In this document: in pieces, positions 1 through 17,740 of the stretch
Layout: the number at the start of each line of letters is the position of its first letter
Numbering within the stretch: position 1 is the stretch's first letter
Assembly (NCBI GenBank): GCA_946534285.1
Contig: CAMNCJ010000007.1
Span: forward strand, 23,219-87,218
Direction of reading: 5' to 3'
Length of the DNA stretch: 64,000 nucleotides
Source of the DNA: an uncultured Prevotella sp.
Lineage (GTDB): Bacteria > Bacteroidota > Bacteroidia > Bacteroidales > Bacteroidaceae
Translations under genes and position numbers: made by a program
Notes under the pieces: generated by a model
Database searches by the model: none
What the model was told of the DNA's origin: nothing
Seen by the model: only the letters and a program-made list of their open reading frames with translations

Positions 1-1
1 A

Positions 2-895
2 CCCATATGCGGCGAATCGAAAATTAAGTTCAACAAAAAACCATTTTCCATTCGACTCAACAAAATCAATATTGAACATACCAGAAAGACGTATGAATCT
101 CATCAACTTTTTTATGTTATTTGTAATGTCTTCATTTAAAGAAGGATTATTAACCCTACCAAAAGCAGATACGCCTTTATGCCCTCCATGACCACCATCA
201 ATCAACTCGACTATACTTGGAATAATAACATCATTCTGATTGCAATACCCTATGACTCCATATTCTCTATCAATATCTATAAATTGTTCAATTAATAACG
301 GGTTTGGATAACTACGGGACATTACTTCTAACCATTCTTTCAACTCAAGCCTTGAATCACATCTTTTTTGATATTGTTTTGCACTATGATAACAAAGATT
401 TCCTTTAACAAAACATGGATATCTAACACCTTCAGGAATAGTGTACTTACCATTTTCACAAGTTGTTGTCCAAGAATCCACAACATTTAATCCAAATTGT
501 TTTGCTAGTTCTTTTTGTTTTTGCTTATCCATTAATGCAGCAATTGCACCCGCCTGAAAATTAATGTGTGAATATAAGAAAAATGGTTTAAGCTGATCTT
601 GAATAATGTCAACCATACATGCAGAATCATCGTCAACTGACATTATAATTGGTTTATTATTCTCTTCACGTAAATGATTCAATAATAATTTTGCTAAACC
701 TTCAGGATCAAACTTCTTTGCATAATAAAAGCTATCAACATATTTCGAATAGGAATCGAATGGTCTATTATGCTTACCTTCATGTAAAACCAAGACAATC
801 AATTTCACTCTGCTATTTTCCAATTTACCGACAGAGCGTATTAATGCCAAGCGTGAAGCAGGATTACTACCTATTATGATAATACTCTGAAACAT
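2..895 (-). CDS. ATP-grasp (carboxylate-amine ligase-like) protein, truncated by window edge; paralog of 904..2100
   Basis: Not in the ORF track. Read manually from ATG at 895 (MFQSIIIIGSNPASRLALIRSVG); at the window edge it reads GMFNIDFVESNGKWFFVELNFRFAAYG, matching GVFDIDFFQSGNVFYFCEINLRYGGSG of the neighbour. Confidence 0.85.
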   Translation of the reverse strand, partial: MFQSIIIIGSNPASRLALIRSVGKLENSRVKLIVLVLHEGKHNRPFDSYSKYVDSFYYAKKFDPEGLAKLLLNHLREENNKPIIMSVDDDSACMVDIIQDQLKPFFLYSHINFQAGAIAALMDKQKQKELAKQFGLNVVDSWTTTCENGKYTIPEGVRYPCFVKGNLCYHSAKQYQKRCDSRLELKEWLEVMSRSYPNPLLIEQFIDIDREYGVIGYCNQNDVIIPSIVELIDGGHGGHKGVSAFGRVNNPSLNEDITNNIKKLMRFIRLSGMFNIDFVESNGKWFFVELNFRFAAYG

Positions 896-903
896 AAGAT
901 AAA

Positions 904-2100
904 TTAGCAAATTTTATGTTTTATCTTCAACAAAAACCTTTTGATTATTTGCTGCCAGAAAATTGACATATAGGCTCTTTGAGGACTCTTATCTTCCTCA
1001 TCTTTTATAAAAGAAACATCAGATTTTTTCTTAATTTCAAAATATTCCTTTATAGAAATATATCCATTATACAAATCTTCCATACACATTCTTTCATTGA
1101 CATATATGCCTTCACCTGTTATACTGTTGTTAATATTATCAATTGGTGTACCAATAAAAGACTTAACCATCATGGCAGGCAAGTTTACTCCCATTTTAGT
1201 AATAGCATATCCCGAACCACCATAGCGAAGATTTATTTCGCAAAAATAGAAGACATTACCACTCTGAAAGAAATCGATGTCAAAAACACCTATGAAACCC
1301 ATTTTCAGAACAAATTGCTTGAATTGTTCTACCAGTTTTTTTAAATCACCAACAGGCATAACCATTCCTTGACGGGCAATACCTGTATTTGATTCTGATA
1401 CCGCAAGAAATTTCAATATTCCCGGTATACAAACATACTTTCCATCAGAAAAACCCAACAAAGCAAACTCTTGGTCGATTTCCTTATAATCTTCAACAAG
1501 TACTTTAAGAGTTCTGCTTCTATGATGAATGAGATAATCAAGAGATTCTGCAAGTTCTCTCTCGTTGCAACATTTGCGCATACCTCCTTTTCCACCATTC
1601 ATAGTAGCCAACGGTTTGCAGAAACATGGATACTGAATAGACTTGGGTATCGAATAATGTCCGTCAACAATATCAATAGTCTTTCCATCCGCCACATTCA
1701 ACCCTACACTTTTTGCGAGTTTTTTTTGGTTTGTTTTATCCATCCAATATCTAATCGAATCAGGTTTGTTGATAATGTGAGGAAATAGGAAATGTTCATT
1801 TAAAATATCCCGAGCATCATCAATTGCAGCAACCGCATCGTCACTATCAGGAATCAAAACAACCTTCTGCAGTGGATCAGTACATTTATTTAAAAGAATC
1901 CGAATAAGAGACTCATTGTCTTTTCTTTGACAATAGTAAAAATGACTGACGTATTTGCTGAAACAATCTATTGGTTTTTTATGTTTTTTTCCAAAACACA
2001 TAACAATCACCGTCACCTCACATCCTATTTCTGCAACAGAACGGATGATTCCTAAACGAGACGTGAAGCTATGGCCGATGATGATTACTTTTTGTTTCAT
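904..2100 (-). CDS. ATP-grasp fold ligase (carboxylate-amine ligase-like)
   Basis: 398 aa; YPCFCKP...GGKGG, VLVEDY and FDIDFF...FCEINLRYGG ATP-grasp motifs. Confidence 0.8.
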   Translation of the reverse strand: MKQKVIIIGHSFTSRLGIIRSVAEIGCEVTVIVMCFGKKHKKPIDCFSKYVSHFYYCQRKDNESLIRILLNKCTDPLQKVVLIPDSDDAVAAIDDARDILNEHFLFPHIINKPDSIRYWMDKTNQKKLAKSVGLNVADGKTIDIVDGHYSIPKSIQYPCFCKPLATMNGGKGGMRKCCNERELAESLDYLIHHRSRTLKVLVEDYKEIDQEFALLGFSDGKYVCIPGILKFLAVSESNTGIARQGMVMPVGDLKKLVEQFKQFVLKMGFIGVFDIDFFQSGNVFYFCEINLRYGGSGYAITKMGVNLPAMMVKSFIGTPIDNINNSITGEGIYVNERMCMEDLYNGYISIKEYFEIKKKSDVSFIKDEEDKSPQRAYMSIFWQQIIKRFLLKIKHKIC

Positions 2101-2102
2101 TG

Positions 2103-3239
2103 CTATAAACTCAACAAATGTTCAATCCCCACTATTGCGGTTTCTCGATTTTGTTCAGAACGAAGTGTATGAAGTGTAAACATTAAATCTCGCTCATTGT
2201 ATCTGAACAACCATTTATTATAAGCACCAGGGAAAAAGCGCCTTAATCTCAACTTCAACTGAGATGGACTTTTAAATGCTTTTAAGTAAAGTCGGAGTTC
2301 TTTGTCACAAAAACTTTGTAATTGTTTGAACACATAATCATCGTCTAAAACCTTTTTTGAACGTTCACAGAAAGCTGATAAATCTTGATTCGATGCATAA
2401 CGAACGAAAAGGTTGTCAACTGATTCCACCAAATGTTTATTGATACGAATCTGTCCGTTTTCAATTATCAATTCTACAATCAATCCTGTATCCGTCAAAC
2501 CGGGGGCAAAGTTTTTTAACAAGAAGTCACCTTGTCCATAAAGCAAATAAGAGCCTTTATAATATTCTTCACAGCCAACACAATGTGTATGTTGAGCAAG
2601 AATCATATCCGCTCCATTATCTGCCATTCTGTGGAAACGTTTTTTCATTTCTGGTGATGGGTAAGGAAATTTTTCTATTCCACCATGATAGATTACAATC
2701 AAATAATCACATTCCGTTTTAAGTTGTTCTATCTCACGACAGACAATATATTCATCATATAACCATGCTCCTGCTTTATCTTTTGTTGGTTTGTTATACA
2801 TAGTCTCACTAACATTATAAAAACCAATGCGCAGTCCGCCTACTTTCTTTATAAGAGAATGGTCAATTACTCTCTCGTTCTTTCCTGCACCGATATAGTT
2901 GATACCCGCTTCATCAAGCGTTTGCATGGTGTCAATCAGGCCTTGATGACCTCCGTCAGTGGCATGGTTGTTGGCAAGCATACAATAGTCAACTCCTAGT
3001 TTTTTGTATGCCTCAACAGCCGAGGTTGTTGCCACCTTAACCGGACCTGTTTTTCTGCATTTGTCAGGATGGTCGGTCAAGGCTCCTTCAAGATTGCAGA
3101 CACAGAAATCTGCTCCAGAGAACAATTGCGTTATTTCTTTTCCGAACAATGAGTCAATGTCACCCTTTGAAAAGAATGAAACATTTTGTTCGGTAGGGAA
3201 AAAGTCGCCGACAATGATTATGTTATGGTTTTGTTCCAT
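2103..3239 (-). CDS. CapA/PGA_cap family metallophosphoesterase
   Basis: GDF, NLEG, LANNHATD, YHGG.E, QHTH, YGQGDFL motifs. Confidence 0.9.
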   Translation of the reverse strand: MEQNHNIIIVGDFFPTEQNVSFFSKGDIDSLFGKEITQLFSGADFCVCNLEGALTDHPDKCRKTGPVKVATTSAVEAYKKLGVDYCMLANNHATDGGHQGLIDTMQTLDEAGINYIGAGKNERVIDHSLIKKVGGLRIGFYNVSETMYNKPTKDKAGAWLYDEYIVCREIEQLKTECDYLIVIYHGGIEKFPYPSPEMKKRFHRMADNGADMILAQHTHCVGCEEYYKGSYLLYGQGDFLLKNFAPGLTDTGLIVELIIENGQIRINKHLVESVDNLFVRYASNQDLSAFCERSKKVLDDDYVFKQLQSFCDKELRLYLKAFKSPSQLKLRLRRFFPGAYNKWLFRYNERDLMFTLHTLRSEQNRETAIVGIEHLLSL

Positions 3240-3240
3240 A

Positions 3241-3825
3241 TTATTTTTTCAATAGGGTGCGCATTAAAGCTTGGAACTTGGATACCTGAAATTTTATCCA
3301 GCAGTAAAATGATGAATATGGACAACCATTTAACCATTTTGCCATCACTACACTATAATGGTCTTTGCTGGATGCACGGAAGAAGCGGACTGGTTTATAA
3401 CCATTTTTTTTTGCAATTTCCTGACGATGAACATTTTTCGAATGTGTGTCAAACACAAGTGTCTTATAACCAAGGTCTCTCGCCAATTGTTCTCTTTTAC
3501 TCTCTAATAGTTTAAATATCCCTCTGCCAGAATACTCTGGTATTACAGCATCAAAACAAATGTATGCGTAAGGGCCTCTATTATACCAAGTCTTTCCAAT
3601 CTTGTCTCCTATCGCCGCCGTACCGATCAATCTTTTACCATCTAAAGCCACCAACACAACACCTTTTTCTCCAAGCGAATCCTTAATTCTCTCCACTGGC
3701 CATTGATAGTGAGCCATATTGATTCCTTTGGCTCTATTTTCAGCATGGGCTTCAAACAAACATTGCTTGATATCATCCCATGTAACCCAATCGGGTTTTA
3801 CCATTATTTGAATGTTGTCCGCCAT
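3241..3825 (-). CDS. GNAT family N-acyltransferase
   Basis: 194 aa; VIPEYSGRGIFKLL acetyl-CoA-binding motif A. Confidence 0.8.
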   Translation of the reverse strand: MADNIQIMVKPDWVTWDDIKQCLFEAHAENRAKGINMAHYQWPVERIKDSLGEKGVVLVALDGKRLIGTAAIGDKIGKTWYNRGPYAYICFDAVIPEYSGRGIFKLLESKREQLARDLGYKTLVFDTHSKNVHRQEIAKKNGYKPVRFFRASSKDHYSVVMAKWLNGCPYSSFYCWIKFQVSKFQALMRTLLKK

Positions 3826-3848
3826 TCTACATTCGCTTAATTAGCACT

Positions 3849-4925
3849 TCAATCAGGGAACCAAGTATTTGGCCTTGGCCAAAGTTCACGAATAATCCTC
3901 TCTGTATATTCGCCCATGCCTGACTTAAACGCCGATTGGCTCAAGCCTGGATTGGTGTTAAATTCAATAAGCACAGGTTCTCCATCTTCTTGGATGGCCA
4001 CATCCCAACCCACAAGGTTGAAGAAAGGAAGCCTCAAATGAAGACGTTTCACCATCTCAATGGCTTTGTCGTATGACGGCAATTGATAGCCTTCTAATAC
4101 TATACCCGTGTCGGTCTTGTCAACATTATCTGTGCTAAAACCGCCAAAAGCTTCTTTTCCTAGTCTACCTTCCTTGTCGATTGTAGTGCTGATTCCACCG
4201 GCGCATTGGTTGTCGACCACCGAACCATTACGTCCAATGCGAACCACTGAATAGATAATTAGCACCTCCATACCAGAACGATACGACAGTATTCGCATAG
4301 TATTCACAGAGGTAGGATTCAACGCAGCCATTCCTTCATGTTGCCGTACCCAATCCTGTACTAAGAAATCTTTCTTGTACTCCTTAAACAATTGAGCTAC
4401 AGTTTTCCCATTAAGGTCTGTTACACCATTATTAGCACTAAACATCTGTACTCCGTGTCCTTCCGACTGACGCGAAGGTTTGATAATAACCTTTTCCAAA
4501 TTTTGACAAAGAGAAACGGCTTCCTCTTCCGAGACGGGCTTCCCCTCAAAATAATAATAGCCATTCATGTTTTTCAGAATGGAATGAACGATGTTCTCTC
4601 CCGGAAATAGGAAGTCGCACATGTTTTTGTCACCGAAAGCACTCTGAAGACGGTGTTGGTTGGCTTTCGGTACAAGTTCACAATGATAAATGTTGTTGGG
4701 AACATACTCCTTGGTAAAGTACCCAGTGCGCGAATAGAAATACTCATGGCAATAGAGCGGCACCTTCTTACCAATCATATCCATGTAAAAGTCTTGTATT
4801 TCCTTTACTTGTTCTTTCGTAAGTTTGCGGTGATGCTCCAAGTCTTTAAAGTTCTTGGTAATGCGCACCTCCCATTTTTTCATCTCGCGTTTTTTGGCGA
4901 GGCGGTTCATTAATTTACCAAACAT
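3849..4925 (-). CDS. Sugar-transfer-associated ATP-grasp protein (ATPgrasp_ST-like)
   Basis: IIKPS...G.GV, LNPTSVNTMRI, VDNQCAGG, VGWDVAI...PVLIEFN. Confidence 0.88.
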   Translation of the reverse strand: MFGKLMNRLAKKREMKKWEVRITKNFKDLEHHRKLTKEQVKEIQDFYMDMIGKKVPLYCHEYFYSRTGYFTKEYVPNNIYHCELVPKANQHRLQSAFGDKNMCDFLFPGENIVHSILKNMNGYYYFEGKPVSEEEAVSLCQNLEKVIIKPSRQSEGHGVQMFSANNGVTDLNGKTVAQLFKEYKKDFLVQDWVRQHEGMAALNPTSVNTMRILSYRSGMEVLIIYSVVRIGRNGSVVDNQCAGGISTTIDKEGRLGKEAFGGFSTDNVDKTDTGIVLEGYQLPSYDKAIEMVKRLHLRLPFFNLVGWDVAIQEDGEPVLIEFNTNPGLSQSAFKSGMGEYTERIIRELWPRPNTWFPD

Positions 4926-4937
4926 ATCAATGGTTTA

Positions 4938-6092
4938 TTAGTCTCTTTTATTTAATTTTATCGTCCACATCAGCAGATTCCGCCTTGCGTCATGGGTGAG
5001 CAGACGCAATAGTGAATAGTCATTGGTTTTATTCTTTCTTCTGATTTTGTTTTTCCAACAAGTAAGCAATAACTTGGTACATACTTTCAACGATTGAGGA
5101 TGTATCGTCTTGTCGATAATTGTCATCTCCTTCATACCCAAATCATTACATATCTTTTTCAGATATGAGTTGTATTTATCCTCGTTGGTCAAATACTGGC
5201 AAATGGTTTCATTGTGCTTGTTGCGTGCTTCGTCATGGTCGATTTCGATTCCAACATTATCCACATTCCTTGTATTCACCACATCCCAAGTCAGTTTCCC
5301 ACCGGCAATGGTCATCACCACGCAAAGGCCTTCGTACCAATGGGGACGATTGGTGGCGCGATAGTCATAGCCTTCTTTGCTGTTGAACAGGAAGTTGCCC
5401 AGACTATAGAAAATAGGCTTTCCATTGTATTCTTCCCATCCTTGCGGACAATGCGGATGGGCGGCAATTACACCGTCAGCACCATAGTCAATGAAATCGC
5501 GATAACGTGCTACGGTTTCAGGCATTGGGATATCAATATATTCAATACCATCGTGTGGCAGAATGAAAAGATAATCCACTTCCTTTTTTGCCTCTATGAT
5601 GACATGGTTCACTTTGAGGTCGTTAATGTAGGCGCAACCCAATCCATCGTGTTTGGTAATATCGTCAAAAACGCCTGTATAAGCAGCAAACGACAAGCCA
5701 AGGAATCCTATCTTTATCCCATCCACTTCCACTATCTTTGGTTTATAGGCTTCTTCGTATGAACCTGCGCCAAAGGCCTCATCACCCAATGCAGCTTTAG
5801 TTTTCTTAAAACCTTCGTCACCCCAATCGAAAGCGTGGTTATTAGCCAAAGAAAAAACATCGAAACCAAGTCCACGCAAAAAGTCGGGAACATCATCGTG
5901 TTGAAAAAAGCGTTCTCTGCCTTGTGGAGGCATTTTCATTTCAGGTTTCAAAGGCACCTCAAAATTTACCACTTTCACATCACAAGAATTTACCAGACTC
6001 TTCAAGTCATCTGATACACAAATTTTTGAAGTCGAGGGTTTGGAGCAGAAATCGCCTGCAAAAAAAAGACGTATGTTATTCATGAGCGACAA
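4938..6092 (-). CDS. CapA/PGA_cap family metallophosphoesterase
   Basis: AGDF, NFE.PL, LANNHAFDWG, HDG.EY, AHPH, FYSLGNFLF. Confidence 0.9.
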   Translation of the reverse strand: MSLMNNIRLFFAGDFCSKPSTSKICVSDDLKSLVNSCDVKVVNFEVPLKPEMKMPPQGRERFFQHDDVPDFLRGLGFDVFSLANNHAFDWGDEGFKKTKAALGDEAFGAGSYEEAYKPKIVEVDGIKIGFLGLSFAAYTGVFDDITKHDGLGCAYINDLKVNHVIIEAKKEVDYLFILPHDGIEYIDIPMPETVARYRDFIDYGADGVIAAHPHCPQGWEEYNGKPIFYSLGNFLFNSKEGYDYRATNRPHWYEGLCVVMTIAGGKLTWDVVNTRNVDNVGIEIDHDEARNKHNETICQYLTNEDKYNSYLKKICNDLGMKEMTIIDKTIHPQSLKVCTKLLLTCWKNKIRRKNKTNDYSLLRLLTHDARRNLLMWTIKLNKRD

Positions 6093-7245
6093 TCTTTTTC
6101 AAGTGGTTCAGCTTCAAATTGTTGGGCTGACGATACATCTTATATGTCTTTCCTGTTTTCAGCCATGCAAAATAGCAGTCACGAATCTCATTTCTCCACC
6201 CACGACGAATGAAATATTGCCCTGTCCTGTCCCAAAAGTCATTCACCTCAATGACAACAGGCCCTTCATCCGTAATGGCAATATCCCAACCTGCAGCCTT
6301 GCAGTACGGGAATGCTTGTTGGAATTTCTTAACTTCTTCCTTTATCGCTTGCCAATTCTCAATAACAACACCATTTAATTGGCTATCGCTGTCGGGGTGC
6401 TTCTCAATGTCCTTTATATTACGCCAGCCGTCGTATTGGATAGCGTACTTGATTTCACCTGTTTCTGTATCCACACACACGTCCACATTACCACCTCCAC
6501 CTGCGTTGTCGACACACTTGCCAGCACGTCCAATTTTAATAAAAGTGGCAATCACCCGTGCCGAACCATCAGGCCACAATGTGGTCATGAATCTTACTGT
6601 ATTGACCGAAGACTCATTGAATGCAGCAAATTGCTTGGTCTGCTTTACAACACTTTCAAAAATCAAAGCATCCGTACCTAAAACCGATGACAGCAAAAGG
6701 GTTTCACCATCAAAACGGGTCATAATGGCATCGTTATCTCGATATTCAATTGCATTAATAACCCACACATTATCGCCATGTGAACTTTCTGTGGTTTTAA
6801 TAACACAGGATTGCACATTTTTTTGTTTAAGGATGTACAACACGCTATTCAAATCATGTGCATTTTCTGTACAATCAGCATAGCGTGCCTCGGGTTGATA
6901 ATAGCAGTACAATTTCGACTTACGCACACCTGTGTTTTCCAGCAACTTATGGGCCATATATTTGTTTCGGGCAAGCGAGTAGTATTTGATTGGGTTGAGA
7001 TAATCCAAATAAAACCGTTGCTCGTTCAGGCCAAGAAAAGAATTGCGAAACTCCTCATCTCGCTTTTCGAACTCAAACTTGTAATACTCATCTCTTGTGA
7101 GACCTTTGGTCTTATACAATTGTTTGTAATCGCGCACAATAGCATGCCGGACATTTGTTGAATTGTCAATAGTTGCCGCCCATTGCAATAGCGAACGATA
7201 CTCCTGTATTGGTCGGATAAAACGCTTCAATAAATTTTTAAGCAT
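6076..7245 (-). CDS. Sugar-transfer-associated ATP-grasp protein (ATPgrasp_ST-like)
   Basis: FNESSVNTVRF, VDNAGGGG, AGWDIAIT..GPVVIEVN. Confidence 0.88.
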   Translation of the reverse strand: MLKNLLKRFIRPIQEYRSLLQWAATIDNSTNVRHAIVRDYKQLYKTKGLTRDEYYKFEFEKRDEEFRNSFLGLNEQRFYLDYLNPIKYYSLARNKYMAHKLLENTGVRKSKLYCYYQPEARYADCTENAHDLNSVLYILKQKNVQSCVIKTTESSHGDNVWVINAIEYRDNDAIMTRFDGETLLLSSVLGTDALIFESVVKQTKQFAAFNESSVNTVRFMTTLWPDGSARVIATFIKIGRAGKCVDNAGGGGNVDVCVDTETGEIKYAIQYDGWRNIKDIEKHPDSDSQLNGVVIENWQAIKEEVKKFQQAFPYCKAAGWDIAITDEGPVVIEVNDFWDRTGQYFIRRGWRNEIRDCYFAWLKTGKTYKMYRQPNNLKLNHLKKIVAHE

Positions 7246-7257
7246 AAGAGAATATTA

Positions 7258-8010
7258 TTATAGTCCTGTTCTTGGATAGTTGTATTTTTTATCTAATTCT
7301 TTCTCCTGTTTTTTATCATAAATTCGGCGCAACCCTGTCGCTTTCACGGTAGCAGGACAGCCCGCCAACATACTATAAGAAGGTTCATTTGAAAAATCTT
7401 TATTGACCAAACTGTTAGAGGCGACAATAGTATTATCAGGAATTACGGCTCCTTTAGAGACTGTAGAACGATTACCCAGCCAGACACGGTTACCTATAAT
7501 AACTGGTGAAGAAAGAGTCTTTATTTCATTGTTGCGATTCAAAAGTTCTATATAATGGAAACTTGTATCATATATCTGACAATCCCAAGCTATTCGACAA
7601 GCATATCCGATTCTGATATGTTCAAAGCAGAAGATCTTTGTGTTTGAACCAATCTTTGTTATGTTGGTTTCTTCTGGTTTAGAATTGATTTCCAGCAATG
7701 CATTCTTGGCAACAAGAATGTAACTGCCCCTAAAAATTCGAACAGGTGCATCAAATACTATAGTTCCATTAATTGTCCAAATATTGTTTTGAATACTGGT
7801 GTCAACATATATATCCTTAGGACCAACCTTAATCTTACCCGTATAAATAGATCCTTTTATTTCCACTTTCCCTTTCAACGAGCGGAAATCCGTCTTACCG
7901 TAAAACAAAATTGGCAGTTTTCTTGCTTGCTTAAAAGGCAGCATCTTGAAATTGAACTCGATGGTCTTTATCAAGTTGCACTTCAACAGTTCTTTTATCT
8001 TCTTTCTCAT
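7258..8010 (-). CDS. Hexapeptide-repeat (left-handed beta-helix) acyltransferase
   Basis: PVIIGNRVWLGNRSTVSKGAVIPDNTIVASNSLV. Confidence 0.85.
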   Translation of the reverse strand: MRKKIKELLKCNLIKTIEFNFKMLPFKQARKLPILFYGKTDFRSLKGKVEIKGSIYTGKIKVGPKDIYVDTSIQNNIWTINGTIVFDAPVRIFRGSYILVAKNALLEINSKPEETNITKIGSNTKIFCFEHIRIGYACRIAWDCQIYDTSFHYIELLNRNNEIKTLSSPVIIGNRVWLGNRSTVSKGAVIPDNTIVASNSLVNKDFSNEPSYSMLAGCPATVKATGLRRIYDKKQEKELDKKYNYPRTGL

Positions 8011-8015
8011 ATTAC

Positions 8016-9077
8016 CTAATGTAATAATCTGTTCTTTATCTTCCTGACAATTTGCAGGGACTTGTATTTTATCAACAACCGTCTTTTTGCCAAGTCTTTT
8101 TCCATCTTTCTCGGCAAATCACATTGCGAGACAATGTTTTCGGGGGATGAATGTACGTATCCAATGCCCGGTATTGTCTTTTCTCCATCAAGATTCAGTG
8201 TAACATAACATCCATAACGCGAAATCGGGTTCCACACCTGCCGAATGGGTGCCTCTATCGGGAACGGATAGCCGACAACATCTTTTATCTTCGACAAGTC
8301 CTCGCTTAACTCAGGATACCAGATTGGACGGGGAGGTTGCATATAAAAGTCTGGGAACAGGAAATTCCCCATACTGAAACATACGGGCTTGCCTTTGAGC
8401 TTCAAGAAAGGCTGAATCTGATGAGTATGGCTGCCCAAAATAGCATCAGCACCTGCTTCCACCATCTTTTTTGCCATAGAAACACATTCGGGCAACGGCT
8501 CATAGCGATATTCCCTGCCCCAATGGGGCATGACAATCACTTTGTCGTATTTTTGTTTGGCTTGCTTTATATCTTTAGTAACTCTATCAATATCCAACGG
8601 ATTGATTCCAGCCTTGTTTGCCTCAGCCAGTTCCACGTATCCCAAATATTTATTACCATACATACAATAGGCGAGAATCGCCACACTCAATCCGTCTTTT
8701 TCAATAACGGCAGGTCGAGAAGCTTCTTCTATATTCACACCAGCACCGCAATGCTTAATCCCGTTTTTCTCCAAAATGCTGATGGTGTTTTTAAGGCCTT
8801 CTTCTCCCAAATCCCATACATGATTATTGGCAAGTGAAACCACATCGAAACCCATCTCCTTCACTCTGAAAAAATCCTCGTTTCTCGCATATATTATATT
8901 TTGCCTTCCTGCAATTTTTACAGAATCATAAGGAAGGTTCGTGCCAATGGCCGATTCGAGTGTGCCAATCCTGAAATCGAAATCCTTCAAGAAAGATTTT
9001 AATTCTGCCGTAATATAATTGTCTTGATAAGGCAAAACGCCTCCAGGCATTATATCTCCACAAAAAAACAAATTCAT
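8016..9077 (-). CDS. CapA/PGA_cap family metallophosphoesterase
   Basis: CGDIM, TLES, LANNHVWDLG, PHWG.EY, GSHTH, FSMGNFLF. Confidence 0.9.
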   Translation of the reverse strand: MNLFFCGDIMPGGVLPYQDNYITAELKSFLKDFDFRIGTLESAIGTNLPYDSVKIAGRQNIIYARNEDFFRVKEMGFDVVSLANNHVWDLGEEGLKNTISILEKNGIKHCGAGVNIEEASRPAVIEKDGLSVAILAYCMYGNKYLGYVELAEANKAGINPLDIDRVTKDIKQAKQKYDKVIVMPHWGREYRYEPLPECVSMAKKMVEAGADAILGSHTHQIQPFLKLKGKPVCFSMGNFLFPDFYMQPPRPIWYPELSEDLSKIKDVVGYPFPIEAPIRQVWNPISRYGCYVTLNLDGEKTIPGIGYVHSSPENIVSQCDLPRKMEKDLAKRRLLIKYKSLQIVRKIKNRLLH

Positions 9078-10576
9078 GCTACAATTCTTTTATTGTCCTT
9101 TTTATCCCAAAACTTGAGTTTTGCAGGTATGATGCTTAAAAAATAGGTATATGATTCCGGCTTAAAGATTAAAGACCAGCCCATATATATCATCAAATAA
9201 ATGGCTGTTTTAAGTGCTCCATCAAGATACATATTCAAGTGCAGATAATGTATGCCGAAGAAAGCGATACCAGCCGCCAACAACGAAGCAACTCCCACAG
9301 GTAGAATATCCAACAATTGTTGCGTCCATTTATACCCAATATGCTTAGATACTAACGATATGTTTACAAAATACGAAAACCATGCATTAATGATAACACC
9401 AACCAGCAGTCCTTTCATTCCGAATACTAATAAGCCTCCTACCATAGCACATAGTCCTATTATCCGTTTAACAATGGTCCAAACCAGCATCGTTTTACTT
9501 TTTCCAATTGCTGAAATAGTCTGCAAATTTACTGATTGTAAACAAGCAGCAAGTCCAGCAACACATAACACCTGAAAATACGGAATACTTTGTATCCATC
9601 TATCTGAATATAATAGAATAAATAAAGGTTTAGCAGTCAACATGAGAATAAACATCATCGGAAATGTAATATAAGAAATTGTGGTCGTCAACCTTTTGAT
9701 CATATTAATCATTAATGTCTTGTTGTCTTGCACTTCAGCATACAGTGGATAAGTCACTTGTGTCATTATTGATGAAATTGTATGAGAAGCTAGCCTTTCC
9801 GTCCCTAAAGCCTTTGAATAATACCCTAAAGTTGATGGATTATAAACTTTGCCTATAACTAACCCAGTCAACTGAGTTGAAAAACGTTCAACTAAATGCG
9901 TCAAAAACATATAAAATCCAAAACCAAACAGTTCCTGGAAAGACTTCCAAGAGAAGACCCATTGCGGCCGCCATTTCACGTAGAACCAAAAAACCAGGGA
10001 AGGAATAGCGCCACCAATAAGGGTTTGAGCAACCAATGACCACACACCAAATCCATGGTAAGCCATAATAATTGTAACAGAAAGAGCAATGATAGCTGTT
10101 CCAACAGATACGATGGAAAGTAATTTGAAATTGAGTTTTTTCTTTAACTGGTTACGTTGTATGACATTAAGGGCATATATAAAGAGAATTAAGCCCTCAA
10201 CACGTAGAACATCACATAGCAAAGGAATTTTGTAAAAGCGAGATATAGCAGGAGCACTAACAAACAAAATGATATACATGAAAGCAGCCATACCGATATT
10301 CCACCAAAAGATGGTAGAATAATCCTCTTGTGTAGGTCTCTTTTTTTGTATCAATGCAGAACCAAAACCGCCATCAATAAAAGCATCGGCCAAGACAATA
10401 AAAATGGAAAGCATTCCGATACAACCATAGTCGTATGGAGTAAGCAAGCGTGCCAAAATTATACCCGAGATGAACTGTATGCCCATTCTCGAGTACTTTT
10501 GCAAGGCGGTCCATACCATGCCTGCTGCGGCTTTCTGCTTTAGATTGTTTTGTGGCATTTTACTTACCTTCTGCAA
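9074..10576 (-). CDS. wzx: Wzx-type polysaccharide flippase
   Basis: 500 aa, many hydrophobic segments; LARLLTPYDYG, D.GFGSALIQKK...EDYSTIFWWN typical of the WzxC-like family. Confidence 0.9.
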   Translation of the reverse strand: MQKVSKMPQNNLKQKAAAGMVWTALQKYSRMGIQFISGIILARLLTPYDYGCIGMLSIFIVLADAFIDGGFGSALIQKKRPTQEDYSTIFWWNIGMAAFMYIILFVSAPAISRFYKIPLLCDVLRVEGLILFIYALNVIQRNQLKKKLNFKLLSIVSVGTAIIALSVTIIMAYHGFGVWSLVAQTLIGGAIPSLVFWFYVKWRPQWVFSWKSFQELFGFGFYMFLTHLVERFSTQLTGLVIGKVYNPSTLGYYSKALGTERLASHTISSIMTQVTYPLYAEVQDNKTLMINMIKRLTTTISYITFPMMFILMLTAKPLFILLYSDRWIQSIPYFQVLCVAGLAACLQSVNLQTISAIGKSKTMLVWTIVKRIIGLCAMVGGLLVFGMKGLLVGVIINAWFSYFVNISLVSKHIGYKWTQQLLDILPVGVASLLAAGIAFFGIHYLHLNMYLDGALKTAIYLMIYMGWSLIFKPESYTYFLSIIPAKLKFWDKKDNKRIVA

Positions 10577-11771
10577 AATCTTTCAAATAGGCAAATCTCG
10601 ATGTCAAATGGCCTTCCTTCAAAATCATGGAACGATCAATCACATCGGAATGTTCACCCTTAAGCATAGGCTCAAACACATGTTTGGTCAACATTTCACC
10701 AAAATAGGCACTGGTATCAATGGCCAAGGCGTTCGGGCATGTGTCCACAGCCATTACTGTGATGTTGTCGGGCGAAGAGAATGCTGGCTCTTCTTTCTTA
10801 CTGACAGGATTGAAATCATAGTAGGGTTCAGCATGCGTTGCAGGACGGACTGTTGATTTAACACTTCCACAAATGTCGCATGTGATATCTCCTATCATTT
10901 TAATAGGTAAATCGTATTTGGTGAAATCGCCTTGTTCAAGATAAACGGGAGCCTTGGGATCCCAATAGTGACATGGGATATAAATATCAGTATGTTTCGC
11001 AAACTTTATGAAATCACTTACGTATTCCTCTGGATGCTCACGGAAATGTTTTCTAACATACGGTTTTCCATCCTTGTGCTTGACAAGTTCTTCTGGCGAC
11101 GCACGATGAAAAGAAATATAATCGATAGGTTCATTAGACAAGAACTCATCCATACTTAGTTCCTCTGCCCGACAACATTCCCTCATCACATAGGTTGCTC
11201 CTTGCGCCACCCTACCATTTCCTGTTATCAGTATCTTCACTTTAGGTAATTTTACAACAGTCAGTATGTTTCTCAATTCTGACAATGTAAATGATTTCGT
11301 GGGTTTCGGCAAAATATCCTTGCCTTCCCTCAGGAAATATCCCCGAAGCGTATAATAAACCCCAACGACTCCAGCCCACCAACCAAAGGCACAAACACGC
11401 TCATTATTCTCATCTACAAGATATTCGTAATCTGAGAATGTTATGCTTTTATTCATGAAAGCCTGCAACAAAGGGCGGTTGTATTCCTGCATCTTGGCAA
11501 TATGGCCGAAGAAGAAATAGTGTTTGTTCGGTATCAGACTTTCAATCTTAGCTTCCTTGATACCAAAGAGAACATCAGCATCGCTGACATCATTCACCAC
11601 CTCTACGCCTTCCGCCCGATATTCGTCATCTGAGTATGCGCGGACATCGCTTGTCTGCACCATAATCTGGTGCTGGGGAAATTGTCTGTTCAACTCAGCC
11701 ACCTGCTTGGGGACAAGTGCCACACGGTTATCAACCGGGGTCTTGGTTTCTTTGATTAGAACTATTTTCAT
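10560..11771 (-). CDS. Lysine-ketoglutarate reductase / saccharopine dehydrogenase-like NAD(P) oxidoreductase (AlaDh/PNT fold)
   Basis: ETK...DNRVAL.P, FGIKE, YFFFGHIAK.Q.YN..LL, DYEYLVD....RV.AFG..AG, TGNGRVAQGA, DITCD..GS. Confidence 0.8.
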   Translation of the reverse strand: MKIVLIKETKTPVDNRVALVPKQVAELNRQFPQHQIMVQTSDVRAYSDDEYRAEGVEVVNDVSDADVLFGIKEAKIESLIPNKHYFFFGHIAKMQEYNRPLLQAFMNKSITFSDYEYLVDENNERVCAFGWWAGVVGVYYTLRGYFLREGKDILPKPTKSFTLSELRNILTVVKLPKVKILITGNGRVAQGATYVMRECCRAEELSMDEFLSNEPIDYISFHRASPEELVKHKDGKPYVRKHFREHPEEYVSDFIKFAKHTDIYIPCHYWDPKAPVYLEQGDFTKYDLPIKMIGDITCDICGSVKSTVRPATHAEPYYDFNPVSKKEEPAFSSPDNITVMAVDTCPNALAIDTSAYFGEMLTKHVFEPMLKGEHSDVIDRSMILKEGHLTSRFAYLKDFAEGK

Positions 11772-11777
11772 TGTATT

Positions 11778-12188
11778 CTACTTTATTTTGCTATACTCCC
11801 TTAGAAGTGTTGAAGAAATACCTTCCGTTCTGGGAACAACAACAACTTCCTTACCATGGTTCTTGCACCATTCAACAGCGCTTTGGAATCCAGCATGGTT
11901 TTGGTCAGGGCCTTTGGCAAAAACGTCGAAATCTATCCTTTGAATATCTTTGTCGATATCTTTATAAATCACAACCTCATCAACATACTTAATGGCACTT
12001 ACCATATACATCCTTTCGTCTGTACTATATACCATCTGAGTACCTGGCTTGTACTTGAGAATGCAATCTCCATCCTGGACAGCCACAATCAAATGGTCAC
12101 CAAGATCTTTAGCATGCTTGAACAAAAGAATATGCCCGATATGAAGCATGTCGTAGACCCCTACTGTTAGCACTTTCTTCATACTCAT
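11778..12188 (-). CDS. Cytidylyltransferase (TagD/glycerol-3-phosphate CT-like), first gene of operon
   Basis: G.YDMLHIGH (HxGH), YVDEV and RTEGISST motifs; 136 aa. Confidence 0.88.
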   Translation of the reverse strand: MSMKKVLTVGVYDMLHIGHILLFKHAKDLGDHLIVAVQDGDCILKYKPGTQMVYSTDERMYMVSAIKYVDEVVIYKDIDKDIQRIDFDVFAKGPDQNHAGFQSAVEWCKNHGKEVVVVPRTEGISSTLLREYSKIK

Positions 12189-12674
12189 ATCACTTAATTG
12201 TTATTTGAGAAAAACGGACCACTATTTTCACAAACCGCAGTCCTAAAAATAGAAACTTGATTATTAATATAAAATATAGATTTCTTTGAGATACTTACAA
12301 TTCATTTCTTTGACAGTGTATGTCTGCTTGAATGGAATTCTGACTGGAGGCTACGTCTTGCAGGGATATAATACTTTTCTTCCCTCCCAGTATGTAGAAC
12401 TTGGAGAGAAAAACAATCTGTGGCAGCAACGCCCACTAATCCCTAAAAGCCAGACTGCCTCCGCTTCAGGATACTCTTTAAGGAGCATCCGCAGATGGTT
12501 CTGCTTCTGATGAGAAAAGCAAATGGAGGTAATACGCCCACCCACTGTATGATTCCGAAAAAACGCTATTGTGCCACCTATTTCCCAGAAAACAAAGTGG
12601 ATTGGCACATATCACTGTTATTTTATATTAATTATAATCAATCTCCAAAATACTGCTTTTCTATTTTTGCGCTG

Positions 12675-12705
12675 CAAAATTATAAAAAAAGAATGAGAAG
12701 ACAAA
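12675..12705 (-). promoter_or_regulatory. Bacteroidota sigma-A promoter for the leftward ATP-grasp/CapA operon
   Basis: Minus strand TTTG (12702-12705), 19-bp spacer, TAATTTTG (12675-12682). Confidence 0.65.
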
Positions 12706-12845
12706 ATTTTTCAACTAATATCTTATTGAGAATCCTATAAGTCATCCTATATAAACGTGAGTTCGGGGTAAGAGAATGAGAAACAGGAAGAACTCACAGA
12801 CGGGTTTCCTTGACTAACAGAACAAGGAGAACCCTATCCCCGTAT

Positions 12846-13000
12846 CCCTGTGCTCTCTGTGGTATGGTAACATGCATTCATATATTTTTGTTTTAACCAC
12901 CGAGAACACCGAGTTCACAGAGTTTTTATTATTATTATAATATTTCTCTGTGTCCTCTGTGCACTCTGTGGTTGTTAATTTGTATATTTATTATTCATCT
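12846..13000. repeat. Palindromic 9-nt-period repeat (CACAGAGnn/CTCGGTGnn); inverted copy of 15709-15861
   Basis: AACCACCGAG-AACACCGAG-TTCACAGAG, AT-rich loop, CTCTGTGTC-CTCTGTGCA-CTCTGTGGTT. Confidence 0.9.
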
Positions 13001-13059
13001 AACTCTTGAGTTCTATACCTCTTATTATTTCGTGGCCAAAAATGCCATTTTTCGCCATT

Positions 13060-13480
13060 AAACGACATGCTGACGATTTGAAAAATTGCGACAAAAGCCT
13101 GTTCACATTTTCATTCAAAATAGAAATGGTTTTTGGGCGAAACGAGCATTGAAAACGAGAAAATGTAAAGAATCACTACCATGAGGCACATTTCTTCACG
13201 CAAAACCTATGCTTTTACATCTCAAAAGATATGGTTTTACCCTTCAAAAACTATGGTTTCACTGCCCAAAAACTATGGTTTTGCGACACAAAACCTATGC
13301 TTTTTTCAGCAGTAATGTGATTTCTTCGTTCAAGGGGAAACCGTTTTCATTGTAATCAATTATTAGTCAACAACTTGCAGGAAGTGCTTCAAAACTCGTG
13401 TATTTCGCCCCAGTTGCACGTTTGTCATCAGCACCGCCCGTATGAGAGGCTTTCATTCGGATTTTTCATGACAATATCAT
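13060..13480 (+). repeat. Dispersed ~420-bp non-coding element, copy 1, containing five 22-bp direct repeats (13201-13306)
   Basis: Colinear with the reverse complement of 59650-60071 (AAACGACATGCTGA...GAAAATGTAAAGA...CAAAACCTATGCTTTT...TGATTTCTTCGTT...CGTATGAGAG...ATGACAAT). Confidence 0.88.
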
Positions 13481-13612
13481 GCATAGGGAATGTTCTGTCC
13501 GCTGAGTACAGAACCCTTGGTCCAATAAGGCTATCGCGAAAATGAAACTGAATGTTTTCACTACCTTGTCAAGAAATATCAAATAATATTTTTATAAGTA
13601 GAAAAAAATGCG

Positions 13613-13620
13613 TATTTTTG
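13613..13620 (+). promoter_or_regulatory. -7 promoter box upstream of the GHMP kinase
   Basis: TATTTTTG about 50 bp before the ATG. Confidence 0.55.
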
Positions 13621-13671
13621 CAGAAAATATGATGAAAACAGGAATTTGTCAACATTATAGCATTAAAAAAT

Positions 13672-14898
13672 ATGACACAAATGAATGATTTGTTCCAGGC
13701 ATACCGTACGTTTTTCGGCACGGGCGATGCACTTTACCGCATGTTCTCACCCTACCGTATCTGCCCCCTCGGGGCACATGTGGACCATCAGCATGGATGG
13801 GTGACGGGCTTTGCCTTCGACAGCGGCATCGAGTTCTTGTTCTCTGAGACAGAAACGGGCAAGGTGGAAATGGCTTCCCTGTCGTTTGAAGGACTGATGA
13901 CATTTAATGTGCAGCGGCCCATTGACGAGCAACAGAGCAACTGGGGAGACTATTTGCGCGGTGCCGCATGGGCATTGCAGCAGGATTTCCAACTGAAGAA
14001 AGGGGTGCGCGGTATCGTGAAAGGCTCCATGCCTATCGGCGGTCTGTCGTCATCGGCAGCGCTGCTGTGCGGTTTCGTGATGGCACTGGCAAAGGTGAAC
14101 CATCTGGAACTGGACAAGATGCAAGTGATTCACTATGCATCGCGCGCAGAAAGGGAATACGTGGGACTGAACAATGGTATTCTGGACCAGGCTTGCGTGG
14201 TGCTCTGCGAAGCAGACAAACTGCTGTTTCTCGACACAAAGAGTCAGCAATACGAACTGATTCCTTTCGCTTCGGAGAAGGGGAAAGACGGAACGAGCGG
14301 TGACGGAACGAGCGTGCTGCCATTCAAATTCGGCATTTTTTTCAGCGGCGTGACACGCAAACTGACAGGAACGGACTACAACCTGCGGGTATCGGAATGC
14401 AAAACAGCCGCTTGGATCATGCAGGCCTATGAGGATATTCCACTGAAAGAACTGCAAGACACACGGCTGCGTGATGTGGAGGAGACCGTTTTCCTGAAAC
14501 ATGAGAAGGATATGCCGGAGCGTTTTGCACGCAGAGCACGCCATTTCTATACGGAATGTGACCGCGTGAAAGACGGGGTGAAAGCGTGGAAGGCTGGCGA
14601 CATCGAGCGTTTCGGACAGTTTGTCTTCGAGAGTTGCGAGAGTTCGATGAACAACTACGAATGTGGTTCTCCTGAACTGATTGCTCTTTATAAGATCATG
14701 AGGGAGACGGACGGCATCTACGGAGGACGTTTCTCGGGCGCAGGATTCAAGGGTGCCTGCATTGCCTTGGTAGATCCCAGCAAGGAAGAGAGTATCAAAC
14801 AGCATGTGGAGGAGGAATACCTGAAGCAATATCCTCAATATAAGGATAGTTTCCATGCGTATTTCTGTAGTCCGGCCCACGGAGTGGAATTTCTATAA
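13672..14898 (+). CDS. GHMP sugar kinase, galacturonokinase-like (galactokinase family)
   Basis: PYRICPLGAHVDHQ, GGLSSSAA, GLNNGILDQ, DYNLRVSEC, NYECGSPEL, GGRFSGAGFKG. Confidence 0.85.
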   Translation: MTQMNDLFQAYRTFFGTGDALYRMFSPYRICPLGAHVDHQHGWVTGFAFDSGIEFLFSETETGKVEMASLSFEGLMTFNVQRPIDEQQSNWGDYLRGAAWALQQDFQLKKGVRGIVKGSMPIGGLSSSAALLCGFVMALAKVNHLELDKMQVIHYASRAEREYVGLNNGILDQACVVLCEADKLLFLDTKSQQYELIPFASEKGKDGTSGDGTSVLPFKFGIFFSGVTRKLTGTDYNLRVSECKTAAWIMQAYEDIPLKELQDTRLRDVEETVFLKHEKDMPERFARRARHFYTECDRVKDGVKAWKAGDIERFGQFVFESCESSMNNYECGSPELIALYKIMRETDGIYGGRFSGAGFKGACIALVDPSKEESIKQHVEEEYLKQYPQYKDSFHAYFCSPAHGVEFL

Positions 14899-14908
14899 CT
14901 CACTTATC

Positions 14909-15718
14909 ATGAAGAATATTGTCATTGCAGCAGGCTATGCCACCCGCTTGGGAGAACTGACAAAGAACTTTCCCAAGCCGCTACTCAGAATCGGCAACAC
15001 CACCATCCTCGACCGTTTGCTTGATGACGTGGATGGTATCGACTCGATTGACGAACATGTGATTGTGACAAACCATAAGTTTGCTCCGATCTTTGAAAAA
15101 TGGGCAGAGGAAAGGAAATGTGCCAAAAAGCCCATCCGCATCATTGACGACGGAACAACATCGAACGAGACACGACTCGGAGCCGTGCGCGACTTGCTGC
15201 TCGCCATCACGGGGGATCCTGACGGAAACACATCTGCCGAACTGGAATATGAGGATATCATGGTGCTGGCGGCTGATAACATCCTGAATTTCTCACTACA
15301 GGGATTTGTTGACTATGCAGAGGAAAAACAATCATCTGTGATTATGTGTCACCATGAGCCGGAACTAAAGAAACTACAACGCACAGGGGTTATCGCCGTA
15401 GATGAGAATATGAGGGTGACAGAGATGCAGGAGAAACCAGAAAAGCCTGTGAGCCACTGGGCTGTGCCGCCTTTCTATATCTACAAAAAGAAAGATCTGC
15501 CACTGATTGCTGACTGTATGAACCACGGATGCGGATTCGATGCTCCGGGAAACCTGGCACATTACCTCGTGGGAAAAACAACGATTCATGCATGGGAAAT
15601 GCCTGGTACGCGATTCGACATCGGATCACTGGACAGTTACCGCGAGGCACAACGAGTTTATGGTGGTGAATTGTGTTTTCCAAACCACAGTGTGCACTTA
15701 GAACATGGAGATGAATAA
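14909..15718 (+). CDS. Sugar-1-phosphate nucleotidyltransferase (NTP_transferase)
   Basis: AAGYATRL..LTKNFPKPLL, EKP, RFDIGSLDSY; the ATG at 14909 is preferred over the track start. Confidence 0.9.
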   Translation: MKNIVIAAGYATRLGELTKNFPKPLLRIGNTTILDRLLDDVDGIDSIDEHVIVTNHKFAPIFEKWAEERKCAKKPIRIIDDGTTSNETRLGAVRDLLLAITGDPDGNTSAELEYEDIMVLAADNILNFSLQGFVDYAEEKQSSVIMCHHEPELKKLQRTGVIAVDENMRVTEMQEKPEKPVSHWAVPPFYIYKKKDLPLIADCMNHGCGFDAPGNLAHYLVGKTTIHAWEMPGTRFDIGSLDSYREAQRVYGGELCFPNHSVHLEHGDE

Positions 15719-15971
15719 TAAATATACAAATTAACAACCACAGAGAGCACAGAGGACACAGAGAATAATTAAATAAAAACTCGGTGATCTCCGTGTACTC
15801 GGTGGTTAGAATAAAACAATGTAGGACATGAATCTATGTTAATACCACAGAGTGCACGGAGGACACAGAGATAGATTTAATACGGAATGATAGGACCACG
15901 CGGGTGGATAAAGACAAAAAACTCGGTGTCCTCGGTGGTTAATAATAAAATAACTCCGTGGACTCGGTGGT
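15709..15971. repeat. Cluster of 9-nt-period palindromic repeats upstream of the GxxExxY gene
   Basis: ACCACAGAG-AGCACAGAG-GACACAGAG...CTCGGTGAT-CTCCGTGTA-CTCGGTGGTT; further arms at 15844-15870 and 15922-15971. Confidence 0.9.
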
Positions 15972-15988
15972 AAAAAAACAGATATGAT

Positions 15989-16354: not shown

Positions 16355-16435
16355 GAAAAACGTTTTCTGAAAAACAACAGAGCGTAAAGATTAATCCAAA
16401 ATGGCTTCTGTAGTTGAGAAAGAACAAGTATTCAA

Positions 16436-16647: not shown

Positions 16648-16681
16648 AGAAAATAAATTGAATAAATAGAGAAGTACAATT

Positions 16682-17722: not shown

Positions 17723-17740
17723 CACTCAAGCAACAATAGT

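Follow-up and report, generated by a model that had tools for sequence, protein, structure and literature searches.

The poly-gamma-glutamate (PGA) synthesis protein CapA/PgsA, of the PGA_cap family, has long been listed as "function unknown," partly because it is membrane bound and unstable (PMC8179263). In Bacillus subtilis, deletion of PgsA changed the D/L ratio of PGA from 75/25 (pgsBCA) to 5/95 (pgsBC alone), which is independent support for a stereochemical role of CapA-type proteins; the nearly all-L product suggests in-line epimerization (PMC6029982). MslH (PDB 8gq9), the only solved relative, epimerizes the C-terminal Trp of a lasso-peptide precursor in a Ca-dependent manner (PMC10406935), and the MslH authors proposed CapA as an epimerase (PMC8179263). 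Here we describe a polysaccharide operon of an uncultured rumen/gut Bacteroidales bacterium that encodes three CapA paralogs together with five ATP-grasp ligases. The window, meaning the whole 64,000-nucleotide (nt) stretch analyzed, is C7:23219-87218 of a 3.3-Mb metagenome-assembled genome (MAG) in 57 contigs. Based on sequence and structural models, we lean toward a reading in which the ATP-grasp ligases couple amino acids to carboxylates of the glycan and the CapAs epimerize the new C-terminal residue. The substrates, the polarity of ligation, the sequence of reactions, and the activity of the CapAs as epimerases are all inferred.

Amide tailoring of capsule sugars is itself already known. 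The capsule locus of Campylobacter jejuni HS:2, like the locus described here, encodes a TupA-like ATP-grasp, which amidates a sugar-acid carboxylate before further assembly (PMC11800379). This protein part, Cj1438C, acts on C6 of GlcA and is the only characterized relative in a capsule pathway (PMC11800379). However, the HS:2 TupA-like domain is fused to a GT2 domain (Cj1438), whereas ours stands alone and is accompanied by four ATP-grasps of two other families and by three CapAs. HS:2 also has the HAD phosphatase Cj1435 and is ABC-transporter dependent, whereas our locus has no HAD phosphatase and uses Wzx/Wzy. The PgsBCA/CapBCA system likewise pairs a PGA_cap protein with an ATP-dependent amide ligase, but PgsB is Mur-ligase-like and the ligases here are ATP-grasps. 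Its product is free PGA, whereas a decorated glycan, made and exported through Wzx/Wzy/Wza, is expected here. A preliminary description of this DNA had linked the CapAs to PGA loci. That link did not hold up: the 26 operon genes include no PgsB- or PgsC-type partner, and the CapAs, unlike PgsA, have no membrane anchor. We rejected a PgsBCA-type PGA system because no Mur-ligase or PgsC-type domain was found in those 26 genes.

Amino acids on sugar acids have been described in O-antigens, which include uronoyl amides with L-amino acids, D-allo-Thr, and N-epsilon-(1-carboxyethyl)-Lys (PMC10609480). Providencia rustigianii O14, with N-epsilon-(1-carboxyethyl)-N-alpha-(D-galacturonoyl)-L-lysine, is a precedent for the opine amide predicted below, and the D-allo-Thr amide of Hafnia alvei 1206 is one for the predicted C-alpha-epimerized residue (PMC10609480). 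These uronoyl-amino-acid O-antigens are enterobacterial and carry single residues, whereas our locus predicts several residues per repeat unit. D-allo-Thr is the C-alpha epimer of L-Thr. We found no paper that assigns the tailoring genes of the Providencia and Hafnia O-antigens.

The three CapA genes all score above the Pfam gathering cutoff for PGA_cap (PF09587; 27 bits):

8016 to 9077, minus strand: CapA1, PGA_cap/MslH-like, 353 amino acids (aa), putative epimerase (PF09587, 8.5e-62, 209 bits)
4938 to 6092, minus strand: CapA2, PGA_cap/MslH-like, 384 aa (PF09587, 1.3e-43, 150 bits)
2103 to 3239, minus strand: CapA3, PGA_cap/MslH-like, 378 aa (PF09587, 1.5e-47, 163 bits)

Their start codons are 7 to 14 residues ahead of the first beta-strand, and there is neither a signal peptide nor a transmembrane segment. 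Therefore, these CapAs are cytoplasmic. MslH, too, is a soluble cytoplasmic PGA_cap protein. Its catalytic dyads are His88/Asp91 and His295/Asp11, its metal ligands are Glu44, Asn87, His259, and His261, and the C-terminal carboxylate of its substrate is located at the metal (PMC10406935). Seven of these eight catalytic or Ca-ligand residues are present in each of our three paralogs, with both His/Asp dyads intact and three of the four Ca ligands in common. The CapA residues D8, E41, N85, H86, D89, H185, and H219, which correspond to MslH D11, E44, N87, H88, D91, H259, and H295, are kept in 3/3 paralogs and in 14/14 polysaccharide-locus CapAs. CapA1 matches MslH by sequence (1.2e-16), and an AlphaFold2 model of CapA1 (pLDDT 90.8) had MslH as its top Foldseek match (E value of 6e-19, TM 0.71), followed by CD73, a 5'-nucleotidase (3.5e-8, TM 0.44). 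The preliminary description assigned no function to the CapAs. These sequence and model comparisons point to the CapA paralogs being MslH-type epimerases, although identity is only 17 to 18% over the structural alignment. The settings also differ: MslH belongs to a ribosomally synthesized and posttranslationally modified peptide cluster with a precursor peptide, whereas the CapAs are in a capsule locus with ATP-grasp ligases.

PGA_cap falls in the calcineurin-like fold, and phosphoesterases are the next structural neighbors after MslH. There are also weak NCBIfam matches to 5'-nucleotidase and cyclic phosphodiesterase models (E values of 3e-4 and 3e-5). The CapAs might be metallophosphoesterases that dephosphorylate an amine after ligation or trim a phospho-substituent, with the ligases adding amino-alcohol phosphates. 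C. jejuni offers a parallel, in that Cj1438 uses phospho-amines and the HAD phosphatase Cj1435 follows (PMC11800379). However, the paralogs lack the canonical ligands of a second metal (the His of DxH and the Asp of GDxxD): they have GD without the His, and the Glu at the MslH E44 position is as in single-metal MslH. In fold, MslH is matched 11 orders of magnitude better than any phosphatase, and the PgsA genetics point to stereochemistry (PMC6029982). We consider phosphoesterase CapAs decidedly unlikely.

The three paralogs are mutually 29 to 32% identical, and a FastTree phylogeny of CapAs has two pure clades, a CapA1 type (support of 0.82) and a CapA2/3 type (0.77). A single polysaccharide-locus CapA clade was rejected, because there was no support uniting the two types. 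The fourth full-scoring CapA of the genome (C32:~38050-39120, 355 aa) has a lipoprotein-type signal peptide and no ligase context. A fifth, weak PGA_cap match of 27 bits is on C22.

Five ATP-grasp genes, all intact, are in the operon. The Pfam cutoffs are 31.4 bits for ATPgrasp_ST (PF14397) and 25 bits for ATPgrasp_TupA (PF14305):

6076 to 7245, minus strand: AGST1, ATPgrasp_ST amide ligase, 389 aa (PF14397, 2.2e-39, 135.8 bits)
3849 to 4925, minus strand: AGST2, ATPgrasp_ST amide ligase, 358 aa (PF14397, 9.9e-42, 143.5 bits)
904 to 2100, minus strand: AG3, classical ATP-grasp (PurT/CPS/biotin-carboxylase-like), 398 aa (CPSase_L_D2, PF02786, 1.6e-05)
1 to 910 in the window, minus strand: AG4, second classical ATP-grasp, 403 aa (N-terminal 303 aa in the window; the gene runs on for 301 nt beyond the left edge)
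Left of the window, minus strand: TupA-like ATP-grasp, the fifth ligase (PF14305, 197.7 bits, model positions 1 to 239 of 241)

The ATPgrasp_ST residues K95, K150, R218, D321, E333, and N335 (AGST1 numbering; AGST2 is alike) are invariant in a 27-sequence alignment. In 15 aligned relatives of AG3 and AG4, K162, E203, E211, D276, and E288-x-N290-x-R292 are invariant. Loss of key residues, which the preliminary description had named as evidence against ligase function, was therefore not seen. The AlphaFold2 model of AGST1 (pLDDT 84.8) had RimK, Ddl, and LysX (LysX/ArgX) as its top Foldseek matches, with a probability of 1.0. These matches were at low TM (0.37 to 0.55) and 12 to 14% identity, and AGST1 has an extra N-terminal helical region of ~100 residues. 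RimK, Ddl, and LysX are carboxylate-amine ligases, and RimK and LysX act on protein C-terminal carboxylates. AGST1 shares the Lys/Asp/Glu-x-Asn ATP-Mg site of RimK/LysX-type ligases, its nearest solved folds, but their acceptor is a protein, whereas that of AGST1 is presumably a glycan-borne carboxylate. AG3 and AG4 resemble PurT, CPS, and biotin carboxylase. Both pass the CPSase_L_D2 cutoff, with other ATP-grasp models weaker; for AG3, PF02222 (5e-06) is just below its cutoff, and PurT and CPS are the PDB sequence matches (1.6e-07). Identity is 30% between AGST1 and AGST2 and 33% between AG3 and AG4. By these values, the paralogs within the operon (CapAs, ATPgrasp_ST, and classical ATP-grasps) are old. 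The ATPgrasp_ST family is large. AGST1 alone has 965 relatives at an E value of ≤1e-5, and metagenomic relatives at 68 to 90% identity form more than 120 clusters; few have a source name, and those that do are named "hypothetical protein." AG3 has hundreds of relatives in metagenomes, with few source names, all generic. We found no paper on ATPgrasp_ST.

In each CapA/ligase pair, the CapA gene is upstream of its ligase. The CapAs might racemize free amino acids or epimerize a soluble dipeptide and feed D-building blocks to the neighboring ATP-grasp, following the logic of Alr plus Ddl. The same catalytic apparatus would serve, no other racemase was found in the locus by Pfam analysis of the operon genes, and AG3 and AG4 resemble Ddl and other free-substrate ligases. 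However, MslH and, by inference, PgsA use peptide-bound C-terminal residues, and we regard free-substrate racemization as quite unlikely.

Next, we consider how widely the pairing of CapAs with ligases is found. PGA_cap is in 157/301 genomes of the order, most of which have one copy, and ATPgrasp_ST is in 18/301. Among 17 ATPgrasp_ST stretches from other genomes of the order, a CapA is within 10 kb of ATPgrasp_ST in three other genomes; by a rough estimate, ~0.1 sites are expected by chance. Across bacteria, 5 of 80 loci with relatives of the three CapAs have ATP-grasp neighbors, and all five are in uncultured Bacteroidales/Bacteroidia MAGs, several of them from rumen. By BLASTP orthology across contigs, CapA-AGST blocks with orthologous members are in L003, L004, L005, L045, L124, L125, L126, L107, and L108. 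Contigs with relatives of AGST1 or AG3 have the parts in rearranged gene orders:

L124: UDP-sugar dehydrogenase, LKR, Wzx, CapA1, two unknowns, CapA1, AGST1, AGST, aldo-keto reductase, AGST, TupA
L125: Octopine_DH, Wzx, one unknown, CapA1, AGST1, CapA2, one unknown, AGST, AGST
L126: TupA, LKR, Wzx, AGST, LbH, AGST, AGST1, CapA2, AGST2, AGST
L128: Wzx, LKR, YdjC, AGST2, GNAT, AG3, AG, CTP, LicD; no CapA
L130: AG, CapA3, AG3, AG

Three blocks recur, CapA1-AGST1, AGST1-CapA2-AGST2, and CapA3-AG3, shuffled among related rumen and gut contigs. The preliminary description had proposed repeated CapA/ligase modules, and the recurrence of the same blocks in related contigs agrees with this. CapA2 orthologues (64 to 65% identity) come after AGST1 in L125 and L126, and AGST2 orthologues (56 to 77% identity) are in L126, L128, and L130. 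The gene order AGST2-GNAT-AG3 is preserved in L128. A CapA3 orthologue (81%) lies between two classical ATP-grasps in L130 but is missing from the otherwise orthologous L128 block. This presence or absence within an orthologous block fits an optional stereochemical tailoring step.

Several observations weigh against epimerase CapAs that work with ligases on a glycan. First, the CapAs have Gly at MslH metal ligand His261. The same Gly is in 75/75 other CapA-family proteins examined, and so MslH is the odd one out at this position. Second, CapA1, CapA2, and CapA3 score 77, 40, and 39 bits against an MslH equivalog cutoff of 700 (NCBIfam NF038314); by this measure they are not MslH orthologues. 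Third, the ~90-residue peptide-binding insert of MslH, its peptide-gripping G-domain, is a gap in the alignment and absent from the CapAs. Fourth, a CapA is missing from the neighborhood of most ATPgrasp_ST genes in the order, so CapA is not needed for ligation. We rejected CapA as an obligate ligase partner because it was within 10 kb in only three genomes among the 17 stretches. Fifth, one 738-aa ORF that spans PGA_cap and ATPgrasp_ST, from a goat-reticulum MAG (L054:9992-12208), was rejected as proof of coupling, because its junction is a 1-nt A-run indel relative to L045, and no further CapA-ATPgrasp_ST fusion was found among 158 relatives. Sixth, no UDP-sugar dehydrogenase is among the 26 operon genes. 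Finally, the organism is an uncultured MAG, and the literature that we found has no assayed ATPgrasp_ST, polysaccharide-locus CapA, or enzyme of this locus.

The genome's only UDPG_MGDP_dh gene is on contig C42, and a uronic acid supply inside the operon was rejected because no UDP-sugar dehydrogenase gene was found there. In L124, a UDP-sugar dehydrogenase adjoins the LKR-like gene, and related loci with a UDP-sugar dehydrogenase or pyruvyl transferases have sources of glycan carboxylates. Amides on uronic acid carboxyls, as put forward in the preliminary description, are plausible. Left of the window, the operon has a CitE/HpcH-like lyase and MaoC hydratase pair (RipC/RipB-like; L001:10471-11838), and such a pair also adjoins AGST/CapA in genome G094 (L107:12279-13700; 383 and 229 bits). 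This pair may make a dicarboxylic acyl-CoA whose free carboxyl serves as ligase acceptor. Candidate acceptors are a uronate, a pyruvyl ketal, and the dicarboxylic N-acyl group that the MaoC/CitE pair would make.

The operon also encodes a PglF-like dehydratase, a DegT aminotransferase, a NeuD-like N-acyltransferase, a FemAB-like transferase, and two more acetyltransferases, and O-antigens often carry D- and L-amino acids N-linked to amino sugars (PMC10609480). This gene content would suit ligases of opposite polarity, which join the carboxylate of a free amino or acyl acid to the amine of an amino sugar (the PglF/DegT 4-amino-6-deoxy sugar). The N-aminoacyl sugars so formed would be N-acetylated by LbH and GNAT. 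Alternatively, they might build a RimK-style poly-amino-acid tail, RimK being the top fold match and processive. However, once an aminoacyl group is attached by its carboxyl, no free alpha-carboxylate is left for an MslH-type metal site, the only characterized member of the TupA-like family amidates a sugar carboxylate (PMC11800379), and in related loci a UDP-sugar dehydrogenase or pyruvyl transferases are sources of carboxylates on the glycan. Ligases of this polarity, or a poly-amino-acid tail, seem unlikely to us.

The remaining window genes of the operon add possible modifications to the amino acids and the glycan:

11778 to 12188, minus strand: cytidylyltransferase, TagD/RfaE-domain-II-like, 136 aa, first operon gene (CTP_transf_like, PF01467, 3.9e-17)
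10560 to 11771, minus strand: LKR-like/opine-type dehydrogenase, 403 aa (AlaDh_PNT_N, PF05222, 9e-21), with a 17-nt overlap with wzx
9074 to 10576, minus strand: Wzx flippase, MOP family, 500 aa (Polysacc_synt_3, PF13440, 2.8e-91)
7258 to 8010, minus strand: LbH (left-handed beta-helix, hexapeptide) acyltransferase, 250 aa (Hexapep, PF00132, 5e-07)
3241 to 3825, minus strand: GNAT N-acetyltransferase, 194 aa (PF00583, 2.6e-08)

The LKR-like protein has the LKR domain of human AASS as its best PDB sequence match (1.9e-28), and orthologues with 69 to 77% identity are beside Wzx in L124, L126, and L128. In L125, an Octopine_DH gene (L125:4934-6022; PF02317, 3.6e-30) is directly upstream of Wzx, which is the slot of the LKR-like gene elsewhere. 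Judged by its family assignment, this is a nonhomologous replacement of the LKR-like gene by another opine-forming enzyme, and the swap argues that the slot makes an opine-type amino acid. The cytidylyltransferase scored 73 bits against the NCBIfam glycerol-3-P cytidylyltransferase model, below the cutoff of 165. Its 78% identical counterpart in L128 (CTP) adjoins LicD, and its probable product is a CDP-activated alcohol phosphate used by LicD. Wzx matched the NCBIfam MOP flippase and TuaB models below their cutoffs, and the LbH acyltransferase had weak NCBIfam matches of the WbbJ and maltose O-acetyltransferase kind. LbH orthologues adjoin AGST1 in L003, L004, L111, and L126.

The favored mechanism, with ligases acting on glycan carboxylates and CapAs on the new residue, would run as follows. 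In the cytoplasm, on an undecaprenyl-PP-linked or nucleotide-linked repeat unit, an ATP-grasp would activate a carboxylate as an acyl-phosphate, and an amino acid would be joined to it through its amine, making an amide bond. The TupA-like enzyme probably acts first, on a sugar-borne carboxylate (uronic acid C6, or a carboxyl left free on a dicarboxylic N-acyl or pyruvyl group). Further residues, at the new alpha-carboxylate or at other sites, are probably the work of the RimK-like ATPgrasp_ST enzymes and both classical ATP-grasps. The CapA paralogs, as metal-dependent epimerases of the MslH/PgsA type, would flip the newly added residue, with its free alpha-carboxylate, from L to D, which could fix a serotype-specific stereochemistry or ready the acceptor for the ligase that follows. 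The role of the LKR-like dehydrogenase would be to produce or incorporate an opine-type (N-carboxyalkyl) amino acid. Free amines would be capped by LbH and GNAT, and a phospho-alcohol would be added through the cytidylyltransferase and LicD. Wzx would then flip the decorated unit, Wzy would polymerize it, and Wza/Wzc would export it.

A bolder version of this mechanism is a peptide assembly line, independent of ribosomes and nonribosomal peptide synthetases (NRPSs), on a lipid-linked capsule unit. The TupA-like enzyme would start the chain, ATPgrasp_ST and the classical ATP-grasps would extend it from N to C, the CapAs would act on each new C-terminal residue like NRPS epimerization domains, and LKR or octopine dehydrogenase would provide an opine residue. 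CapA1-AGST1, CapA2-AGST2, and CapA3-AG3 would be modules shuffled between strains, giving a capsule like a D-amino-acid glycopeptide. We offer this version tentatively and think it doubtful in full. We found no paper on the ligase/CapA pairing or on CapA-type enzymes in glycan loci. What sets this locus apart is that one operon holds three CapA/ligase pairs, together with a conserved LKR-like partner, once swapped for an octopine dehydrogenase, and the shuffling of cassettes. Soluble, cytoplasmic, ligase-paired CapAs are a tractable test of an in-line epimerase role of the CapA family. If the mechanism is true, rumen and gut Bacteroidales capsules bear short, partly D-configured, opine-modified peptide side chains made by stand-alone ligases. 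Surface antigens would thereby gain a new source of diversity, with a bearing on phage and host immune recognition, and the enzymes would be a simple toolkit for glycan-amino-acid conjugates.

The 12 operon genes at 1 to 12188 of the window are tightly packed minus-strand open reading frames (ORFs) with intergenic gaps of -17 to +23 nt, and the arrangement is real, well beyond chance. Pfam bore out the earlier domain calls for all 12. None of the 12 is a glycosyltransferase, as had been pointed out, but because the last gene crosses the left window edge and the operon continues, "12 kb without a glycosyltransferase" was a partial view: three are in the leftward part of the operon, GT4, GT2, and GT4, where the preliminary description had suggested that they might be. 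The operon has 26 genes over ~27 kb, from 12188 down to 14,970 nt left of the window, inside a capsule locus of ~37 kb. Left of the window, on the same strand, its genes are, in order:

Left of the window, minus strand: LicD; TupA-like ATP-grasp (PF14305, 2.8e-58); Wzy; GT4, GT2, GT4
Then, minus strand: Bac_transf priming transferase; NeuD-like N-acyltransferase; MaoC hydratase; CitE/HpcH-like lyase
Then, minus strand: 343-aa protein; FemAB-like transferase; DegT aminotransferase; PglF-like dehydratase

Wzy (PF04932), the three glycosyltransferases, and the Bac_transf priming enzyme (PF02397, 9e-61) are 2.0 to 7.4 kb left of the window. A Pfam search with the 343-aa protein gave nothing useful. 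Upstream of the operon are the export genes and a divergent cassette:

17814 to 21771, minus strand: Wza (Poly_export), Wzc (Wzz+GNVR+P-loop kinase, AAA_31), and a CpsB/CapC-type phosphatase (Pfam)
13672 to 17722, plus strand: galactokinase-like GHMP kinase, sugar-1-P nucleotidyltransferase, an inserted PD-(D/E)XK gene, and a GalE/TviC-like 4-epimerase (Pfam)

A flippase, a polymerase, a priming transferase, three glycosyltransferases, and Wza/Wzc are thus all present, as in Wzx/Wzy-dependent capsule or exopolysaccharide (EPS) loci. Taken jointly with the epimerase/ligase reading, we somewhat favor the view that the region is the variable "tailoring" half of such a locus in an uncultured Bacteroidales. 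The tailoring section is unusually large, with five ATP-grasp ligases, one FemAB-like transferase, three CapAs, and three acyltransferases. In composition the operon is a mosaic, with a GC content of 0.29 to 0.34 from AG3 through GT2 (C7:18008-25318; window -5210 to 2100), 0.38 to 0.43 in the CapA and AGST genes, and 0.49 to 0.51 in DegT/PglF (C7:8248-11482; window -14970 to -11736).

Every NCBIfam match of the plus-strand kinase/nucleotidyltransferase/epimerase cassette is below its cutoff; a precursor supply, perhaps of a uronate, is possible. The PD-(D/E)XK_3 nuclease-fold gene (15989 to 16354, 2.3e-42) lies between the nucleotidyltransferase and the epimerase, and the same family is at the edge of L130. 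In L003, an 88%-identical locus, a 2.1-kb insert (L003:9324-11436) lies between CapA2 and AGST2; it has three ORFs of 240, 208, and 169 aa without a Pfam match. Pfam gave nothing useful for the unassigned ORFs in L003, L124, and L125. L003 also has an extra gene for a 596-aa BPL_N/PPC-domain protein (L003:722-2512) between the cytidylyltransferase and the LKR-like gene, and a BPL_N protein is ahead of Wzx in L128 as well.

The operon and the kinase cassette are separated by a leader:

12189 to 13671, no strand assigned: leader/divergent intergenic region, 1.5 kb, with no ORF of note

A promoter and terminator scan of this leader gave nothing above chance, and an Rfam search of 1 to 20000 matched no family. 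Just upstream of the first gene, a 17-nt AT-rich inverted repeat (12260 to 12276 and 12619 to 12635, 94% complementary) encloses 342 nt. This may mark an invertible promoter like those of Bacteroidales capsules, or it may be a chance occurrence; the L003 contig stops 270 nt upstream of its first gene. Further along the leader, at 13201 to 13310, are five phased 22-nt direct repeats, each CAAAAnCTATGGTTTT plus 6 nt.

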